A stretch of DNA of 64,000 nucleotides from Nanobdellota archaeon. GTDB taxonomy: Archaea; Nanobdellota; Nanobdellia; Pacearchaeales; GW2011-AR1. A program made the position numbers and the translations under genes. The notes beneath the pieces are model-generated. The model searched no databases. It saw nothing but the letters and a program-made list of their open reading frames with translations, and was not told the origin of the DNA. Below are positions 18,208 through 61,392 of the stretch, one piece after another; within the stretch, counting starts at the first letter, position 1, and every line of letters starts with the position of its first letter. The stretch is from positions 10,590-74,589 of the forward strand of contig JBDRNV010000005.1 in assembly GCA_043810695.1 (NCBI GenBank). Direction: 5' to 3'.

Positions 18208-18325
18208 TGGCCCCGATGGGATTTGAACCCACGACACCTGGATATCTCCTCGTTTGTACAAGGAAATTCTGAACTTTTGATTCGAGTTAAGAGTCCAGTG
18301 CTCTACCAGACTGAGCTACGGAGCC
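18208..18325 (-). tRNA. tRNA-Lys (anticodon CUU) with ~44-nt intron at canonical 37/38 position
   Basis: The reverse complement folds as GGCTCCG / GCTC-AGTCTGGTA-GAGC / CTGGA-CTCTTAA-[intron]-TCCAG / GTGGG-TTCAAAT-CCCAT / CGGGGCC-A. The acceptor contains one G-U pair. Confidence 0.75.
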
Positions 18326-48201: not shown

Positions 48202-48308
48202 GCACCAGTGGTTTAATGGTAGAACTCAAAATTCCCATGGCTGATGCAGCTGCGGCAGACATCCAACGGAAAAAGCTCGTGATCCGGGTTCAATTCCTGG
48301 CTGGTGCA
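48202..48308 (+). tRNA. tRNA-like gene with ~35-nt insertion in the anticodon region (candidate non-canonical intron or pseudogene); candidate anticodon loop TTCCCAT (Gly-CCC)
   Basis: A perfect acceptor stem GCACCAG/CTGGTGC+A, a D-arm GTTT-AATGGTA-GAAC, and a T-arm CCGGG-TTCAATT-CCTGG are visible. I could not pair the 3' side of the anticodon stem after removing a canonical 37/38 intron. Confidence 0.45.
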
Positions 48309-54925: not shown

Positions 54926-56959
54926 ATGGCTGAAGAAGCATTGATAACTGGCAAGTCAAAAAACGATGAATTAATGATTGAAGCAAAAAATTTCTTTGAC
55001 TTCAATAAGAAAGAAATAGGTGAATCAATAAGAAAGGGCAGAAACGTAATATATATTGATTTTATAAAACTGACAGAATTCTCAAACAAACTAGCAGAAG
55101 AGATTCTTATAAATCCAGAAGAAACACTTGGAATTATTGAGCTTGCAATTGAAGAAATGGGGCTTGTTAGTAAGGTTCGGATAAGATTTGTAAATCTTCC
55201 AAAAAGTCAGGAGATGGCTGTAAGAAATATTCGATCAAAAAATCTTAATGAAATGGTTGTCATTGAAGGAATTGTAAGGCAGGCTAGTGATGTTCGTCCG
55301 CAGGTTATAAATGCAAAATTCGAATGTCCTTCATGCGGCACTGTGATTTCTGTTCTGCAAATGGAAAAAAAATTTTTAGAACCTTCAAGATGTTCTTGCG
55401 GCAGAAGAGGTGGTTTCAGGCTTATCAGCAAGGAAATGGTAGATACTCAAAGAGTTGTTGTTGAAGAAGCGCCTGAGTCTCTAACAGGAGGAGAACAGCC
55501 AAAAAGAATAAACACTTTTCTTAAGGAAGATCTTGTTGAACCAAAAATGGAAGAAAAAACAACCCCAGGCAGCAGAGTCAAAATAATAGGAATACTAAAA
55601 GAAGTTCCTGTTCCACTTAATTCAGGCGGACTTTCAACAAGATTTGAACTTGCTCTTGAAGTTAATAATATAATTCCTATGGAAGAAACTTTTGAAGAGC
55701 TTGATATAAATGAAGAAGATGAAAAACAGATTCTTGAACTTGCACAAGACCCAAAAGTATTTGAAAAACTTGCCGGAAGTATCATTCCAAGCGTTTGGGG
55801 CTATGAAGAAATAAAAAAATCTCTTGTTCTGCAATTATTCGGAGGAGTTAAAAAAACTCATATAGACGGTCAAAAAAGCAGGGGAGATTTGCATATTCTT
55901 CTTGTTGGAGACCCAGGTGTTGCAAAATCAGCAACTCTTGGTTTCATGGCAGGAATTTCGCCAAAAGGAAGATATGTTGTAGGAAAATCTGCAAGCGGGG
56001 CAGGACTTACAGCCACTGTTGTAAGAGATGAATATCTTCGTGGTTGGAGTCTTGAAGCAGGTGCAATGGTTCTTGCAAATAAAGGACTTGTATGTATTGA
56101 TGAACTTGAAAAAATGGATCCCAATGACAGAAGCGCAATGCATGAAGCAATGGAACAGCAAACGATAACAATAAGCAAGGCAAATGTTCAGGCAACATTA
56201 CGTGCAGAGACATCTGTACTCGCAGCTGCAAATCCAAAATTTGGCAGGTTTGATCCATATCAGCCAATTGCACAGCAAATTGATTTGCCTCCCACATTAA
56301 TAAATCGGTTTGATGTAATCTTTCCTTTAAGAGATTTACCTGATAGAAAAAAGGACGAACTTATTGCAACACATGTTCTAAATGCACATCAAAATGAAGG
56401 AGAAGGTATGGTAATTCCAAGAGAACTCTTTAGAAAATATATTGCTTATGCAAAACAAAGAATAAAACCTTTTCTAAAAGATGAAGCTGTTGAAGAAATA
56501 AAAAAATTCTATGTTGAATTAAGAAACATGCCTGTTTCATCAGAAGGAGCATTGAGGCCAATTCCAATTTCTGCAAGACAGTTGCAAGCTTTAATAAGAA
56601 TGTCAGAAGCTTCTGCAAAAATGAGATTAAGCGAAACAGTTGATGCTGAAGACTCAAGAAGGGCAATAGAAATCATGAAATATTATCTAACCCAGGTTGG
56701 ATGGGATTATGAGTCAAAAACATTTGATATAGACAAAGGAACAGGAGGAATGCCCGCCTCGCAAAGAAATAAAGTCTTTCTCGTAAGAGATGTTATAACC
56801 AATCTTGAAAATAAACTCGGAAAAATGATTCCAATAGAAGAAATAGAAAAAGAACTTGAAGGCAAACTTACAACAGATGAAATAGATGAAGCAATAACAA
56901 AACTTGACATAAGCGGTGTAATATTTAAACCAAGAAAAGGATATGTTGCAAGGACTTAA
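54926..56959 (+). CDS. mcm: MCM replicative helicase
   Basis: C4 zinc finger (CPSCG...CSCG), Walker A GDPGVAKS, Walker B CIDELEKM, and an arginine-finger region. 677 aa with no intein. Confidence 0.9.
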   Translation: MAEEALITGKSKNDELMIEAKNFFDFNKKEIGESIRKGRNVIYIDFIKLTEFSNKLAEEILINPEETLGIIELAIEEMGLVSKVRIRFVNLPKSQEMAVRNIRSKNLNEMVVIEGIVRQASDVRPQVINAKFECPSCGTVISVLQMEKKFLEPSRCSCGRRGGFRLISKEMVDTQRVVVEEAPESLTGGEQPKRINTFLKEDLVEPKMEEKTTPGSRVKIIGILKEVPVPLNSGGLSTRFELALEVNNIIPMEETFEELDINEEDEKQILELAQDPKVFEKLAGSIIPSVWGYEEIKKSLVLQLFGGVKKTHIDGQKSRGDLHILLVGDPGVAKSATLGFMAGISPKGRYVVGKSASGAGLTATVVRDEYLRGWSLEAGAMVLANKGLVCIDELEKMDPNDRSAMHEAMEQQTITISKANVQATLRAETSVLAAANPKFGRFDPYQPIAQQIDLPPTLINRFDVIFPLRDLPDRKKDELIATHVLNAHQNEGEGMVIPRELFRKYIAYAKQRIKPFLKDEAVEEIKKFYVELRNMPVSSEGALRPIPISARQLQALIRMSEASAKMRLSETVDAEDSRRAIEIMKYYLTQVGWDYESKTFDIDKGTGGMPASQRNKVFLVRDVITNLENKLGKMIPIEEIEKELEGKLTTDEIDEAITKLDISGVIFKPRKGYVART

Positions 56960-57284
56960 AATGTGGGAAAAATTAGGAAACGTTAATATAAAAGATAAAG
57001 AAAAATATTTGAATTTATTTAGAGATTTGATAAATAGAATTCAAGCTGGAAATTATAAATTTAATGATATTGAAGGTAAAGATTATTATATTATTAACGA
57101 AGAAAACAGGAAGTCTAGCAAATTTGTTCATATAGTTCCAAAAGAGTTATTAACCCTCTTTAATGATATGAGAAAAGATGCACCTAACGAATTTTTAGGT
57201 TTTACTATATTAATAAATAATGTAAGAGTAAGCTGCTTTGGGATTCCGTGTTCAGAATTAAGCAAAGCGATAATAAACAAATAA
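56943..57284 (+). CDS. hypothetical protein (start possibly at internal Met 56961)
   Basis: 113-aa ORF overlapping the mcm stop. Confidence 0.3.
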   Translation: MLQGLKMWEKLGNVNIKDKEKYLNLFRDLINRIQAGNYKFNDIEGKDYYIINEENRKSSKFVHIVPKELLTLFNDMRKDAPNEFLGFTILINNVRVSCFGIPCSELSKAIINK

Positions 57285-57287
57285 AAA

Positions 57288-57929
57288 ATGGCTGAAGAAC
57301 AATTCAAAAGAAATATAGCATATAAACTAAGAATAGGCGATATTTTAATAGGAAAGCCAGTAGTAGATGGAGAAAGATTTTCTTTTCTTGAATTAGGAGA
57401 TAAAAAAATAATAAGAGTAAATATTATAGGAAATATTGTTGACAAGTATGACACAGGACAAGAAGAAAGAAGCGACGGAAGAAAATATGTTTTTCTTACA
57501 TTAGATGACGGCTCAGGGCAGATAAGATTAAAAGCATTTGGTGATGATTTTGATAAATTTCGGAATTTTGTTCAGGGGCAGACAGTTGTTGTAATAGGAA
57601 TGCTAAGACACTGGAACAATGAAACATATCTCTCTCCTGAAATAATAAAAGAAATGGATTCAAAATATCTTCTTGTAAGAAAATTAGAAACAGAAAAAGA
57701 TAAAGTCGTAAATTCTGGAAATATTGCTAAAGAGCAGGTAATAGCAATTAAGGACAGAATTCTTGAACTAATAAAAAATTCAGAAGAAAACAGCGGAATA
57801 GAGATTGATAAAATAACTGAAAATTTCCCGACCATCTCTTCAACATTAATAAACCGGGAAGTTCAAAAGCTTCTTGAAGAAGGAATTGCTTTTGAACCTC
57901 GCCCTGGAAAAATCAGGTATTTGGGATGA
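57288..57929 (+). CDS. OB-fold nucleic-acid-binding protein with C-terminal winged helix (RPA32-like, tentative)
   Basis: A beta-rich OB-like core (IRVNIIGNIV...YVFLTLDDGSGQIRLKAF) and a C-terminal wH-like EVQKLLEEGIAFEPRPGKIRY. Lies next to mcm. Confidence 0.4.
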   Translation: MAEEQFKRNIAYKLRIGDILIGKPVVDGERFSFLELGDKKIIRVNIIGNIVDKYDTGQEERSDGRKYVFLTLDDGSGQIRLKAFGDDFDKFRNFVQGQTVVVIGMLRHWNNETYLSPEIIKEMDSKYLLVRKLETEKDKVVNSGNIAKEQVIAIKDRILELIKNSEENSGIEIDKITENFPTISSTLINREVQKLLEEGIAFEPRPGKIRYLG

Positions 57930-57931
57930 TT
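57900..57931. repeat. left copy of 32-nt direct repeat (CGCCCTGGAAAAATCAGGTATTTGGGATGATT) = 3' end of OB-fold gene
   Basis: Matches 58394-58425 with 3 mismatches. Brackets the DUF4258/DUF2283 cassette. Confidence 0.6.
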
Positions 57932-57935
57932 AAAT

Positions 57936-58169
57936 ATGAAAATAAAATATTCAAAACACTGGATTAGGAAACAAAAAGATAAGAAAAAAGATATTACAAA
58001 GGACATCATTGAATACTGCATAAAAAATTCTAATCAGTTAAAGGACAAGTATTGGACAGATGTTTTTAATGCCATTTCAAAAATACCAGTCTCTGGAAGA
58101 ATACTCAAAGTTGTATATAAAAAAGAGAACCAAAAAGTATTTATAATAACAGCATATTGGTTAGATTAA
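57936..58169 (+). CDS. DUF4258-like small protein (putative toxin component)
   Basis: 77 aa, with KIPVSGRILKVVYKKENQKVFIITAYW resembling the DUF4258 C-terminus. Lies directly upstream of a DUF2283-like gene. Confidence 0.45.
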   Translation: MKIKYSKHWIRKQKDKKKDITKDIIEYCIKNSNQLKDKYWTDVFNAISKIPVSGRILKVVYKKENQKVFIITAYWLD

Positions 58170-58170
58170 G

Positions 58171-58380
58171 ATGAAAAAGATAACTTACGACAAAGAAGCT
58201 GATGTTTTGAATATAGATTTGGAAAACAAAGAATATTGGAAAAGTGTAGAGTTACCTAATGGAATGATTGTTGATATTTCAAAGGATGGAAGTATAACTT
58301 CTATTGAAATTCTATGGGCAAGCAAATTCTTTTCTGGAGATGCCAGAAGAGTTATTGAAACAGCAGAATCTATTTCTTGA
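58171..58380 (+). CDS. DUF2283-like small protein (putative antitoxin component)
   Basis: YDKEADVLNIDLENKEYWKSVELPNGMIVDISKDGSITSIEILWAS matches the DUF2283 pattern (YDxExDxLYI...GxxxGIEIL). Confidence 0.55.
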   Translation: MKKITYDKEADVLNIDLENKEYWKSVELPNGMIVDISKDGSITSIEILWASKFFSGDARRVIETAESIS

Positions 58381-58393
58381 CAAGTATGAGTCA

Positions 58394-58425
58394 CGTCCTG
58401 GAAAAATTAGGTATTTAGGATGATT
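58394..58425. repeat. right copy of 32-nt direct repeat (CGTCCTGGAAAAATTAGGTATTTAGGATGATT)
   Basis: See the left copy. The right copy would also encode ...RPGKIRYLG-stop. Confidence 0.6.
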
Positions 58426-58435
58426 TTATCTTCTT

Positions 58436-59479
58436 TTACCTATAAATTTCTCTTACAACTTTCTTCCTTAATTCAAATGAATCAGCCCATTTTGCATAAG
58501 CATTCCAGCCCTGAAAGATTTCAAGTATCTTTTCTTTATTTAAATCCGCGTTCCTATATTTTCTGATTTCCAAAAACATATTCCTTATGTTTCTTTTTCT
58601 TAAAAGCCTGAAATAATAAAAATTTCTGAAACCGACAAAATCTATTCCTCTTGATAAAGAAATAATTTTAGACTTTTCTTTATGAAATTCAATTTTTAAA
58701 TTTTTAATTAAAAAATCCTCTATCACCCCCCCCCAGCTTAGTAGTTTTTCTCTTGACGGATTTATAAGAACAAAGTCATCAACGTATCTTATATAATATT
58801 TTGCCCGCAATTTATGTTTAACAAATTTATCAAGTTCATTTAAGTAAACATTAGCAAAAAATTGGGAGGTTAAATTTCCAAGAGGCATTCCTTTTCCCTT
58901 AGGGTTGTCTAAAACATTATTTTCCAAAATTCTTTCAATAAGCCAAATTACTTTCTCGTCTCTTATCTTCCTTCTTATTATGCTCAGCAAAATTTTATGG
59001 TCAACTTCCTGGAAATAATGTTTGATGTCTGCTTTAAAACAATATCCTTTTACTTGATTATTATTAAACCATCCTTTTGTTTTTCCATTTTTTGAAACCT
59101 TTCTCATAAAATTATAAAATCTTTTTATAGCAAACAAGTTTCCCTTTCCTTTACGATTAGCGCAAGAGTCGTAAATAAAGGTTTTATCAAATATTGGTTC
59201 AATAACTCTAACTAAAGCATGATGAACAATTCTATCCCTGAAATCAGATTTAGAAATTTTTCTGGATTTTGGGTCTCGTAGAATAAATGTTTTTAATGGA
59301 AGAGGTTCATAAGTTTGGAATTTCAGTTCATTATGTAATGCTCTTAAATTAGTTACTAATTTTTCCTCAAACTCAATAACATCATCTTTCTGTGTTTTTC
59401 CTTTTCTTGCTTTTCTCCATGCAAGAACCAGATTCTTTATTGAATAAATCTCAGGATAAAGATTTTTATGGGTTCGCAT
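58436..59479 (-). CDS. DGR-type reverse transcriptase
   Basis: RT domains 1-7, including RKISKSDFRDRIVHHAL, GMPLGNLTSQFFANVYLNELD (LGxxxSQ, as in Bordetella bRT IGNLTSQ) and RYVDDFVLI. 347 aa, the size of DGR RTs and smaller than group II maturases. Confidence 0.85.
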   Translation of the reverse strand: MRTHKNLYPEIYSIKNLVLAWRKARKGKTQKDDVIEFEEKLVTNLRALHNELKFQTYEPLPLKTFILRDPKSRKISKSDFRDRIVHHALVRVIEPIFDKTFIYDSCANRKGKGNLFAIKRFYNFMRKVSKNGKTKGWFNNNQVKGYCFKADIKHYFQEVDHKILLSIIRRKIRDEKVIWLIERILENNVLDNPKGKGMPLGNLTSQFFANVYLNELDKFVKHKLRAKYYIRYVDDFVLINPSREKLLSWGGVIEDFLIKNLKIEFHKEKSKIISLSRGIDFVGFRNFYYFRLLRKRNIRNMFLEIRKYRNADLNKEKILEIFQGWNAYAKWADSFELRKKVVREIYR

Positions 59480-59511
59480 ATTAGCATGAAAAACCTAGCC
59501 ATTAGTTGAGC

Positions 59512-59596
59512 CATTCTACCATTATCGTTGGAATTCGCCAAGTTATCATTGTTGGAGTTCAAATTCAAGTTCCTGTTCAAGTACAACCTGGAAAGT
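59512..59596 (-). repeat. DGR template repeat (TR), sense on minus strand
   Basis: 85 nt. Compared with VR1 and VR2, all 17+17 mismatches fall on plus-strand T (an A in the minus-strand template). Lies between the target gene and the RT. Confidence 0.75.
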
Positions 59597-59818
59597 TTTT
59601 CTAGCCCATTAATTAAAAGTAAATCACCACCTTTTCAATTTTCAGTAAACTTACTAGTTGTTAAAGTTGAATTTTATGACTTCCATATTAATGGAAGTGC
59701 TATTAATGGGCGTGTGGCCCAACCATGATACTTGATTAACAAGTACTGGCTAGGAATTTTATAAAGAAGAATTGTTTTATAAATTTAATTTCCTTTAAAT
59801 TGACTACGCTTGGACAAT

Positions 59819-60676
59819 TTATTTTCCACTAAGAACTTTTTCTGCTTTTTTGTATCTTCTATCAACTTCTGATATTTGTTTATCTCTTATTTCTTGAAGA
59901 TTTTTTAAATAATCATCCAAAATTTTCTGCGAAGTGGCTTCGCCACTTACAACAACCACCCTACCACCATCGCCGGAATCCGCCAAGCCACCATCGTTGG
60001 AGATCAAACTCAAGCCCCTGCCCAAGTACAACCTGGAAAGTCCTGAATCTCTTGTATAAAGAGTTCTGTTTCCATCTCCTAATTTTTCAGGCAAACCATA
60101 TTTTCCTGTTTCTGAAAATGATTTTTGATTATTTTTTCCATTAAGAATAGGTGCATAAATTAATTCTGCTTCATCTGTTAACTTAAATACCAATCCCTTA
60201 GGCGAATTTGAATCATTGACTATTTCAAGCTCATTTAATGAAATAAGTATTGGTGTTTCTCCTGCTTTTTTTCCTCTTGCTTTTACCTGTTCTGCTAAAT
60301 TTTTAGCGAGATATTCATTTGGATTTCCCTCTGTTCTTAAAACTAATCCAGTATCTTCATATGTTCCTCTTAAATTAAAGGCATTTGTTTTTAAAACTCT
60401 TTCAAGGTCAGCTTGGTTTGCTGTTCTTAATCCTTCTTGTTTAAGAATCTGGTTAGCAAGAACAACTACAAAGGGGTTGCTTTCTTTTACAATACCATCT
60501 GTATATGAAAGAACATTAAGGGCATTTGCGTTTTTGTAATCAATTTTAACTTTTCCTTGGTATTCTGCTAAGAAAGCTTTTCCAAAATCTCCTTCTAAAA
60601 ATCCTGCTTGAGGTGTGTTTTCTGGAATTGCAATTAATGGTTTTCCTTTGAATGCTGGAAGTCTTGTCTTTTCCAT
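59819..60676 (-). CDS. DGR variable (target) protein 1
   Basis: 285 aa. C-terminal region ...NRTLYTRDSGLSRLYLGRGLSLISNDGGLADSGDGGRVVVVSGEATSQK is encoded by VR1, followed by a 34-aa tail. Paralog of target 2. Confidence 0.65.
   Translation of the reverse strand: MEKTRLPAFKGKPLIAIPENTPQAGFLEGDFGKAFLAEYQGKVKIDYKNANALNVLSYTDGIVKESNPFVVVLANQILKQEGLRTANQADLERVLKTNAFNLRGTYEDTGLVLRTEGNPNEYLAKNLAEQVKARGKKAGETPILISLNELEIVNDSNSPKGLVFKLTDEAELIYAPILNGKNNQKSFSETGKYGLPEKLGDGNRTLYTRDSGLSRLYLGRGLSLISNDGGLADSGDGGRVVVVSGEATSQKILDDYLKNLQEIRDKQISEVDRRYKKAEKVLSGK
59957..60041 (-). repeat. DGR variable repeat VR1
   Basis: 68/85 identical to the TR. The 17 differences all fall at TR adenines. Followed on the 3' side (coding sense) by a hairpin at 59932-59948. 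Confidence 0.75.
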
Positions 60677-60678
60677 TT

Positions 60679-61392
60679 TTATTGTTTTCTTTTTACTATT
60701 TTTTGTGAAGTGGCTTCGCCACCAACAACAACCACCCTACCATAATCGATGGAATACGCCAAGCTACCACCGTCGGAGTACAAATCCAAGCCCCTGCCCA
60801 AGTACAACCCGGAAAGTCCTGAATCTCTTGTATAAAGAGTTCTATTTCCTTTTTTATCAAATATAGGCATTCCACGTTCATCTTGTCTTACAAATTTTTG
60901 TTGATTATTTTTATTATTCAATTCAGGAGCTTCAAAATAATCAAAGGTTTTTCCTCTCTTAAAATTTAAACCATAAAAAGAATTACCATCCTCAACTAAT
61001 TCTAAGCCATTCATAACAACAGGTTCATTAAATTTTCTTTTTTTAATAAGTTTAGCCAATGTTTCTGCTAAATAATCATTTCTTTCATAAGTATCTTCGT
61101 TACTTCTTAATACAAGAGAAGGAACATCTTCATATGTTCCATTTAAAAAATTATTATCTAATTGGATTATTTGGTCTAATTCTGGTAAAGTAGCTGTCCT
61201 TATTCCTACCTGATTAAGCAAAAGAACCTTAAAAAGATTAGAACCTTTTATAGAAATATCTAATGAATTTTTTGCCCTTTCATTATTAAACTTTTTAATA
61301 GCATCTTCATATATTTTCTGCTCATTTTCTGATAAAAATCCTGCTATTAAGTAAGGCACATTCTTGGGTATAAATCTTATTGTCTTTTCCAT
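60679..61392 (-). CDS. DGR variable (target) protein 2
   Basis: 237 aa. The C-terminus ...LYLGRGLDLYSDGGSLAYSIDYGRVVVVGGEATSQKIVKRKQ is encoded by VR2. No signal peptide seen. Confidence 0.65.
   Translation of the reverse strand: MEKTIRFIPKNVPYLIAGFLSENEQKIYEDAIKKFNNERAKNSLDISIKGSNLFKVLLLNQVGIRTATLPELDQIIQLDNNFLNGTYEDVPSLVLRSNEDTYERNDYLAETLAKLIKKRKFNEPVVMNGLELVEDGNSFYGLNFKRGKTFDYFEAPELNNKNNQQKFVRQDERGMPIFDKKGNRTLYTRDSGLSGLYLGRGLDLYSDGGSLAYSIDYGRVVVVGGEATSQKIVKRKQ
60733..60817 (-). repeat. DGR variable repeat VR2
   Basis: 68/85 identical to the TR. The 17 differences all fall at TR adenines, at a partly different set of positions from VR1. Hairpin at 60707-60723. Confidence 0.75.

Follow-up and report, generated by a model that had tools for sequence, protein, structure and literature searches.

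A putative toxin-antitoxin cassette inserted behind the RPA gene of a Nanobdellota archaeon, with duplication of the gene's 3′ end

Here we describe a two-gene cassette, a putative type II toxin-antitoxin (TA) module, in a 64,000-nt stretch of DNA from a Nanobdellota archaeon (assembly GCA_043810695.1, contig JBDRNV010000005.1, positions 10,590 to 74,589 of the forward strand; G+C 30%), which as a whole we call the window. The cassette lies just behind the stop codon of a gene for an RPA32-like single-stranded DNA-binding protein (RPA), the last 32-39 bp of which are doubled, and comparison with a related genome identifies it as an insertion of the "long target duplication" kind. TA modules have been called mobile, and it is usually assumed that plasmids, phages or transposons carry them. 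The movement of a bare two-gene unit is rarely visible, and this locus offers a clean empty site against which such a unit can be read.

The locus and its empty counterpart

The features of the locus, in window coordinates, are:

57288..57929, forward strand: RPA32-like single-stranded DNA-binding protein, 213 aa, with an oligonucleotide-binding (OB) fold and a C-terminal winged-helix tail; last gene of the MCM-p113-RPA block
57900..57931, forward strand: left repeat, the working RPA 3′ end (RPGKIRYLG, stop at 57927-57929, and 2 nt); aligns to 1401-1423 of locus L007
57932..58425, forward strand: net insertion relative to the empty site, 494 bp (4-nt spacer, two genes, 13-nt junction, one repeat unit)
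57936..58169, forward strand: putative toxin gene, 77 aa, probably of the DUF4258 family though divergent, with a predicted RelE/BECR-type RNase fold; its start lies 6 nt past the RPA stop
58171..58380, forward strand: putative antitoxin gene, 69 aa, DUF2283; starts 1 nt after the toxin stop
58385..58393, forward strand: TATGAGTCA, probably an older and decayed 5′ stretch of the relic, where the gene has TTTGAACCT for its F-E-P codons; 4 of 9 bases match
58394..58425, forward strand: right repeat, a non-coding relic of the RPA end (RPGKIRYLG, TGA and 2 nt), contiguous with the original downstream neighbour

The left repeat (57900-57931) reads CGCCCTGGAAAAATCAGGTATTTGGGATGATT and the right repeat (58394-58425) reads CGTCCTGGAAAAATTAGGTATTTAGGATGATT, with 3 mismatches between the two. 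The left copy is the in-frame 3′ end of the 213-aa gene (57288-57929), which closes with ...FEPRPGKIRYLG and a stop. The right copy, read in its own frame, gives RPGKIRYLG and a stop again: all 3 mismatches fall at third positions and are synonymous, and all are changes from G/C to A/T relative to the left copy. A search allowing 3 mismatches finds the 32-nt repeat twice in the 64-kb window and not once in 100 dinucleotide shuffles. Repeat finding in the window lengthens both copies to 39 nt (57893-57931 and 58387-58425; 85% identity), with similarity falling to 4 matches in 9 immediately 5′ of 57900 and 58394. The relic is also recovered by tblastn, as RPA residues 202-213, and lies in the +1 frame relative to the antitoxin open reading frame (ORF). 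The 462 bp between the repeats hold only the 77-aa and 69-aa ORFs. A preliminary description of the locus had reported near-identical 32-nt repeats with three mismatches, the left one being the true end of an OB-fold gene (RPGKIRYLG-stop) and the right one re-encoding the same peptide tail, around two small co-directional genes of 77 and 69 aa; each of these points is borne out, and the two copies it had noted are the only ones within the 64 kb. Since the same arrangement is found at 99.8-100% identity in three contigs from other samples (L001-L003), making four assemblies with the window, an assembly artefact is excluded.

The counterpart without the cassette is found at L007, whose RPA is 87% identical and in which the stop codon of a convergent reverse transcriptase (RT) gene, the same gene that follows the cassette in the window, lies 3 nt after the RPA stop. 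Positions 3-1423 of L007 align to window 56561-57925 and positions 1401-1890 to window 58397-58892, so that both flanks align and the single RPA end at 1401-1423 aligns both to 57903-57925 and to 58397-58419. Because the one L007 end matches both repeats, the window has a 494-bp insertion with target duplication. The empty site that the preliminary description had suggested looking for in relatives is thus present, as one RPA end abutting the RT gene. Among other relatives, L121 (the closest, RPA 88% identical) has one gene end, behind which lies a small gene of another kind, L004 (RPA 83%) also has one gene end, and in all 23 of 23 species-representative genomes RPA is present but neither the cassette nor a second RPA tail. 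Set beside the features by which Furuta et al. (2010) recognised long target duplications, L007 provides the empty site that aligns to both repeats; the duplication exceeds 30 bp narrowly (32 nt, or 39 with the diverged part) and is not multi-copy (2 copies in 64 kb); and there is no mobility gene in or next to the insert, its neighbours being RPA and the RT gene of a diversity-generating retroelement (DGR).

The target is a strongly conserved gene end. The RPA product matches the Pfam tRNA_anti-codon OB fold (5.9e-10), its homologs are titled "RPA family protein", many of them with an RPA_C winged-helix domain (PF08784), and the C-terminal ...LLEEGIxFEPRPGKIR[YW]LG is near-invariant over the last 20 residues of 120 RPA homologs.

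As to the cargo, the 69-aa protein was correctly described as DUF2283-like, matching the full Pfam profile (PF10049) at 51.7 bits (E 9.8e-14) against a cut-off of 23. The parallel claim of a DUF4258-like 77-aa protein stands in part: the match to PF14076 is full-length (positions 1-71 of 71) and 29 of 30 relatives tested match the family at E<0.01 (best 2.7e-6, with several pre-annotated PF14076), but the window protein itself, at 21.7 bits (E 2.6e-4), falls below the gathering cut-off of 25. The protein collection contains, apart from the 100%-identical entry for the protein itself, 76 relatives, almost all close to 77 aa in length. Residues H8, R55, K58 and Y74 are invariant. An AlphaFold2 (AF2) model built on the alignment of the relatives reaches a pLDDT of 92, and its best Foldseek matches in the PDB are RelE (4fxe), YafQ (4mmg), ParE2 and HigB2, with Cami1 and MqsR also found; the top matches have a probability of 0.98, a template modelling (TM) score of ~0.53-0.55 and an E-value of 0.04. 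Neither small protein is matched in NCBIfam or PADLOC, and searching PDB sequences with a profile of the toxin and with the antitoxin gave nothing useful.

Fold, family and pairing together suggest that the product of the 77-aa gene is probably an RNase-type toxin with the RelE/BECR fold, from a divergent branch of DUF4258, and family and pairing that the DUF2283 protein presumably neutralises it. Recent papers class DUF4258 as a BECR RNase toxin family and report no experiments on it (PMC11980606; bioRxiv 10.64898/2026.08.28.747851). By predicted fold and architecture the pair is a member of the RelE/ParE-superfamily type II modules, in that the two small adjacent genes are co-directional and tightly spaced (1-nt spacer), the modelled toxin takes a known toxin fold, and the pairing is conserved over genomes and contexts, a DUF2283 gene following the toxin gene in essentially all of ~85 loci. 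This constancy agrees with the preliminary description, which had spoken of a recognised putative TA pairing; the word "recognised" finds no support in the literature searched, in which no paper describing DUF4258/DUF2283 as a pair was found.

Copies of the cassette in other genomes

The comparison covers 86 loci in DPANN metagenomes, gathered from look-ups of three toxin relatives and one metagenome scan; JGI holds at least 197 cassette loci, of which 80 were examined. The cassette stands directly after RPA in at least 8 divergent lineages, with RPA 55-69% identical to that of the window, and ~20 of 79 copies lie inside the large-subunit (LSU, 23S) rRNA gene. Further copies follow aEF-2 or RpoA'', stand beside a pseudouridine synthase gene, or occupy other contexts. 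It is because of these many contexts that we regard the cassette as mobile, and together with the empty site they uphold the earlier proposal that a mobile module was inserted here with target duplication. Viral contigs were scanned and contained no toxin relative. In a neighbour-joining tree of toxin and antitoxin the RPA-adjacent copies form one clade, the rRNA-borne copies another and the aEF-2 copies a third.

The LSU-borne copies share one position, have a TATA-like box of their own and show no flanking duplication, the rRNA (GTGAAGATATAGTCC...) resuming at most 25 nt after the antitoxin stop (L110 (1-3733), L038, L040, L041, L044, L046, L052, L053, L057, L065, L070, L073, L075, L080, L082, L111, L112, L114 and L115).

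A conserved TATA-like box lies ~22-34 nt 5′ of the start in 53 of the 61 copies outside the RPA site and in 0 of 8 RPA-adjacent copies. Given the missing box and the 6-nt spacing after the RPA stop, transcription of the pair at the RPA site most likely comes from read-through of the MCM-p113-RPA block.

Flanking duplications are a recurrent trait of the family. For each locus the 150 nt before the cassette were compared with the 200 nt behind it and the best local match was taken; with the 99th percentile of 590 positional controls as threshold, 13 of 71 loci exceed it where ~0.7 would be expected, with duplications of 14-152 bp:

RPA end: window, L034 group, L043, L083 and L050; 14-39 nt
aEF-2 end: L094 and L104; 26 and 52 nt
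RpoA'' end: L045; 42 nt
end of a 417-aa gene: L054; 22 nt
end of a convergent pseudouridine synthase gene: L058; 81 nt
start of the downstream gene: L072; 64 nt
mostly non-coding: L066, L105, L101 and L116; 57, 85, ~135 and 152 nt

Where the end of the upstream gene is duplicated, the left copy stops at the stop codon plus 0-2 nt and the relic begins at or just past the antitoxin stop. For the aEF-2 site, L118 (aEF-2 96% identical) has one gene end and no cassette; its downstream sequence also differs. In the window, no recombinase gene, inverted termini or attC-sized spacer accompanies the cassette. The copies compared show a unit that apparently spreads without a transposase or integrase of its own.

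How the insertion may have arisen

The differences between gene end and relic look like differences between alleles. Over eight loci, 13 of 18 such differences are synonymous or preserve the stop, against 4.0-5.6 expected if they were random (P <= 2.5e-4), and the excess persists when loci of possibly shared history are left out (P ~1e-3). If the relic drifted freely and only the selected copy contributed synonymous changes, we estimate that ~42% of the differences would be synonymous, against 72% observed. Relics are 80-100% identical to the gene end of their own genome, and the RPA-adjacent toxins are only 62-83% identical between lineages, so the relics must be young or refreshed. Identity in RPA shows no correlation with identity in the toxin (rho -0.26). 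Each relic of the window, L034, L043 and L083 is diverged in its 5′ part and near-perfect in its 3′ part, and the four share a 5′ boundary, those of L034, L043 and L083 starting at the same F-E codons directly 3′ of the antitoxin stop, and the L034 relic is nearer to the working end of L043 (2 differences) than to that of L034 itself (5). What follows the relic varies by lineage: RT, a membrane protein or aIF2beta.

That the differences are mostly synonymous speaks for allelic recombination with the conserved gene end as its anchor. We think it likely that the locus is a two-gene, promoter-less, addiction-type module that sits behind the RPA stop, duplicates its target and has been moved by recombination anchored in the RPA 3′ end. 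The cassette lineage would be specialised on this end, having colonised it once and then moved between related DPANN genomes. Incoming DNA would consist of a gene end and the cassette, with or without an old relic, the left copy keeping the RPA gene intact; the recipient's own gene end would stay downstream of the cassette or recombine with the incoming relic, which may act as, or be overwritten at, the right-hand crossover. The two repeat copies would then be the gene ends of two alleles and not a fresh copy with its decayed twin. Host recombination or repair must be responsible, there being no transposase, integrase, inverted ends or attC-like site. The preliminary description had left open whether the repeats reflected insertion with target duplication or recombination between gene-end sequences; the evidence leans towards the latter, and a duplication of the transposase type is disfavoured.

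Several observations weigh against this reading. The window's two copies are each other's closest relatives, and taken alone the window is compatible with in-place duplication followed by 2-3 changes that happen to fall at third positions (~1-7% by chance). No recombination breakpoint emerges when the RPA gene is compared in sliding windows with those of L007 and L004. Non-synonymous differences separate the copies at L045 and partly at L054, the compared loci are not fully independent, and the comparisons were chosen after the data had been seen. At L061 and L088 the two genes are kept after RPA without a recognisable relic, a situation that the preliminary description had singled out as telling against insertion; the repeat is common but not universal. 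The model also leaves the creation of each first duplication unexplained. On the side of the cargo, the window toxin lies below its Pfam cut-off, the E-values of the fold matches (0.04) are weak, no paper in the literature searched describes DUF2283 as an antitoxin, and we infer toxicity, neutralisation and RNase activity from fold, family and pairing.

A bolder version of the same idea, which we offer tentatively and hold to be less likely than not, would make the cassette a recombinase-free selfish element specialised on ultra-conserved ends of informational genes (RPA, aEF-2, RpoA'', 23S rRNA) in DPANN archaea. Its relic would serve as a built-in right-hand homology arm, allowing host homologous recombination to carry it into any related genome, whatever lies downstream, in a manner akin to homing without an endonuclease. 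Were this so, it would give a concrete mechanism for the mobility of TA modules, long noted and poorly explained.

The duplication could instead have been made in one step, by capture of the cassette at a staggered double-strand break (nicks ~32-39 nt apart) and fill-in, followed by neutral drift of the relic with no recombination between genomes. A double-strand-break origin has been proposed for insertions of restriction-modification (RM) units, which share the variable repeat lengths (here 14-152 bp) and the lack of mobility genes (Furuta et al. 2010, PMC2853133). Consistent with such an event, the window copies are nearest to each other, sharing a derived GGA TGA TT relative to L007 and L121; the L121 gene end does not match the window relic and has ATC, TTG and GGT TAG as in L007. 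However, neutral decay predicts changes mostly of the non-synonymous type, where 13 of 18 are synonymous or stop-preserving; given the age of the cassette clade at the RPA site, the relics should be far less well conserved than they are; and a two-layer relic with a 5′ boundary common to several lineages is not expected from independent breaks. We consider this explanation rather unlikely.

A different objection concerns what the pair does rather than how it arrived. It may serve the host or the element in another role, for example in RNA processing tied to the rRNA insertions, or in regulation: the functions of both families are putative, some DUF2283 proteins (FseA) are described as transcriptional activators, about one quarter of the cassettes lie in 23S rRNA genes, and neither PADLOC nor NCBIfam has a match. 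The RelE/YafQ-type fold, small size, 1-nt spacer, invariant pairing, patchy distribution and many contexts fit a selfish TA module better, and we hold a non-TA role to be unlikely.

Still less do we favour the possibility that the cassette is ancestral at the RPA site and that L007, L121 and L004 lost it through direct-repeat recombination. A 32-bp direct repeat can indeed mediate precise deletion and restore the single gene end seen in L007, and the RPA-adjacent cassettes are monophyletic. Yet the three closest relatives and 23 of 23 species-representative genomes have nothing of the cassette at this site, the divergence of RPA and toxin is uncorrelated, and a relic as old as the clade could not have stayed 91% identical to the gene end unless refreshed.

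It is very improbable that the relic is conserved as protein, a +1 shift or stop read-through adding an RPA-tail peptide (DKYESRPGKIRYLG) that is under selection. The relic is in frame right after the antitoxin stop in L034, L043 and L083 and in the +1 frame in the window, the DUF2283 protein FseA is known to arise by +1 frameshifting, and synonymous differences are in excess; but the frame varies by lineage (0, +1, +2), the L059 relic is itself frameshifted, out-of-frame aEF-2 relics show the same synonymous pattern, no slippery site of a known kind can be recognised by eye in the window, and the relic is missing at L061 and L088.

Duplication of a target gene's 3′ end is frequent among integrative elements, and TA genes are common as integron cassettes. 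For all that, a conventional mobile-element footprint (att sites of a mostly deleted element, a transposon or miniature inverted-repeat transposable element (MITE) duplication, or an integron cassette boundary) is scarcely credible, as there are only two small ORFs between the repeats and no recombinase-sized ORF at 55-64 kb of the window, viral contigs hold no relatives, and repeat length and sequence vary by site. Each form of it was rejected on specific grounds: a DNA transposon, insertion sequence or MITE by the lack of inverted repeats at the borders and a duplication of no fixed length (14-152 bp); an integron cassette by the mere 13 nt from antitoxin stop to repeat, which leave no room for attC, no hairpin-forming repeat being reported; and an integrase-borne element by 462 bp between the repeats without an integrase gene.

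Neighbouring features and comparison with known systems

The preliminary description placed the cassette between a replication gene block and a DGR, and both neighbours are genuine:

54926-56959: MCM gene, upstream of the 113-aa ORF and RPA
56943-57284: 113-aa ORF (p113) between MCM and RPA, with a 17-nt overlap with the MCM stop
58436..59479, reverse strand: DGR reverse transcriptase (Pfam RVT_1, 8.6e-18), convergent with RPA and its direct neighbour before the insertion
~59511-59596: template repeat (TR) of the DGR
59596-59754, reverse strand: RT-16 RNA (Rfam)
59956-60041 and 60732-60817: variable repeats (VRs), each C-terminal in its target gene (285 aa and 237 aa, respectively)

The 113-aa ORF has no match in Pfam or NCBIfam; L007 has a homolog of it in the same place, and L004 has a 189-aa ORF there instead. 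The order MCM-RPA-(membrane protein)-aIF2beta is conserved in the clade, with the spot after RPA empty or filled by varied accessory genes. These include a nucleotidyltransferase (L026), a methyltransferase (L017), small ORFs of no named family and, at L121 1564-1718, a different small gene beginning MGKQVLDFTVIIEQDEEGIYVANVP, which by eye resembles an antitoxin of the HicB type. Accessory and selfish genes thus seem to gather at this site as at a hot spot. The window MCM is uninterrupted; in L008, L015, L019, L023 and L026 the tblastn matches to MCM are split by 0.8-1.3 kb, which suggests inteins or other MCM insertions.

Downstream, 58436-61392 is a complete DGR, with RT, RT-16 RNA, one TR and two VRs, in which the differences between TR and VR are confined to one base type (T on the forward strand, which is A on the coding strand). 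The RT gene contains a run of nine C at 58726-58734 (G9 on the coding strand) that could be prone to slippage; in the window the reading frame is intact. In L004, two copies of a G+C-rich repeat after RPA (2480-2560 and 2820-2900) resemble the DGR VR/TR; the stretch that separates the two copies in this 4.2-kb contig holds no RT gene. L003 leaves the window sequence in the middle of the right repeat (L003 1256-1338, window 58417 onward), with 78 nt that have no match in the window save a 17-nt RT-gene motif in the opposite orientation (window 58491-58507), and nothing else matched among the sequences fetched; this divergent end could be an assembly chimera, an inversion, a variant or another RT paralog. 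Elsewhere in the window, tRNA matches at 18208-18325 and 48202-48308 span 118 and 107 nt against a 71-position model, and these tRNAs probably contain introns.

On this reading the locus shows a selfish module joined to the replication operon of a reduced DPANN genome, beside a DGR. Its main value, in our view, is as a tractable footprint for the spread of bare TA cassettes, and the sister loci repeat that footprint in measurable form, as long target duplications at conserved gene ends with allelic-looking differences. By fold and architecture it is a type II TA module, and by its flanks an insertion with long target duplication, both kinds being already known. No paper in the literature searched describes TA modules flanked by direct repeats of this kind.

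The route we favour resembles Campbell-type insertion-duplication and homology-facilitated illegitimate recombination, which are known from bacterial transformation experiments; the latter was reportedly treated by de Vries and Wackernagel in 2002. In such entry, as would be the case here, one homologous anchor can be duplicated on both sides, no enzyme of the element is needed, and donor and recipient polymorphisms distinguish the copies. The differences are that here it would be read from footprints in uncultivated archaea and that the relic-side anchors are very short, measuring tens of bp. Integrative elements that bring a replacement 3′ end to the att sites of tRNA or protein genes likewise double the 3′ end of the target and leave the gene intact. 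Unlike them, the cassette has no integrase, measures only 0.46 kb, and changes its repeat sequence and length with the site.

With the selfish inserts in informational genes of DPANN and candidate phyla radiation (CPR) genomes, namely rRNA insertions and inteins (PMC11270868), the cassette shares a preference for conserved targets (23S rRNA and the ends of RPA, aEF-2 and RpoA''). It differs in encoding no homing endonuclease and, in the window, in lying behind the gene and not within it. Compared with the DUF4258 type II TA modules (Gerdes 2025, PMC11980606), it has the same small coupled genes, predicted RelE/YafQ-like fold and patchy, mobile distribution; however, the toxin gene comes first, where the order antitoxin-toxin is listed for DUF4258, the partner is DUF2283 and not a HicB- or MqsA-type antitoxin, and the toxin falls below the Pfam cut-off.

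The nearest precedent, "insertion with long target duplication", was described for bacterial RM units (Nobusato et al. 2000, Gene 259:99; Furuta, Abe and Kobayashi 2010, PMC2853133), and is cited in the literature for "other DNAs" too. The RM insertions have long duplications that vary from tens to hundreds of bp, no mobility genes and empty sites in relatives, and some of their repeats overlap the 3′ ends of genes; no archaeal case passed the RM screen, and DNA breakage by the RM enzymes was suggested as the cause (PMC2853133). Like those units, ours is a small addiction-type unit between long variable repeats, with no mobility genes and a one-copy empty site. Its cargo is instead a putative RNase-type TA pair, its host is a DPANN archaeon, the cassette lineage re-uses one site (the RPA end), and the differences between the copies look allelic. 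Because the cargo is putatively an RNase-type TA pair and not a DNA-cutting RM system, DNA breaks made by the cargo are excluded here. If our reading is correct, long target duplication extends from bacterial RM units to an RNase-type archaeal module, and its mechanism would belong to the host recombination system rather than to DNA cleavage by the cargo.

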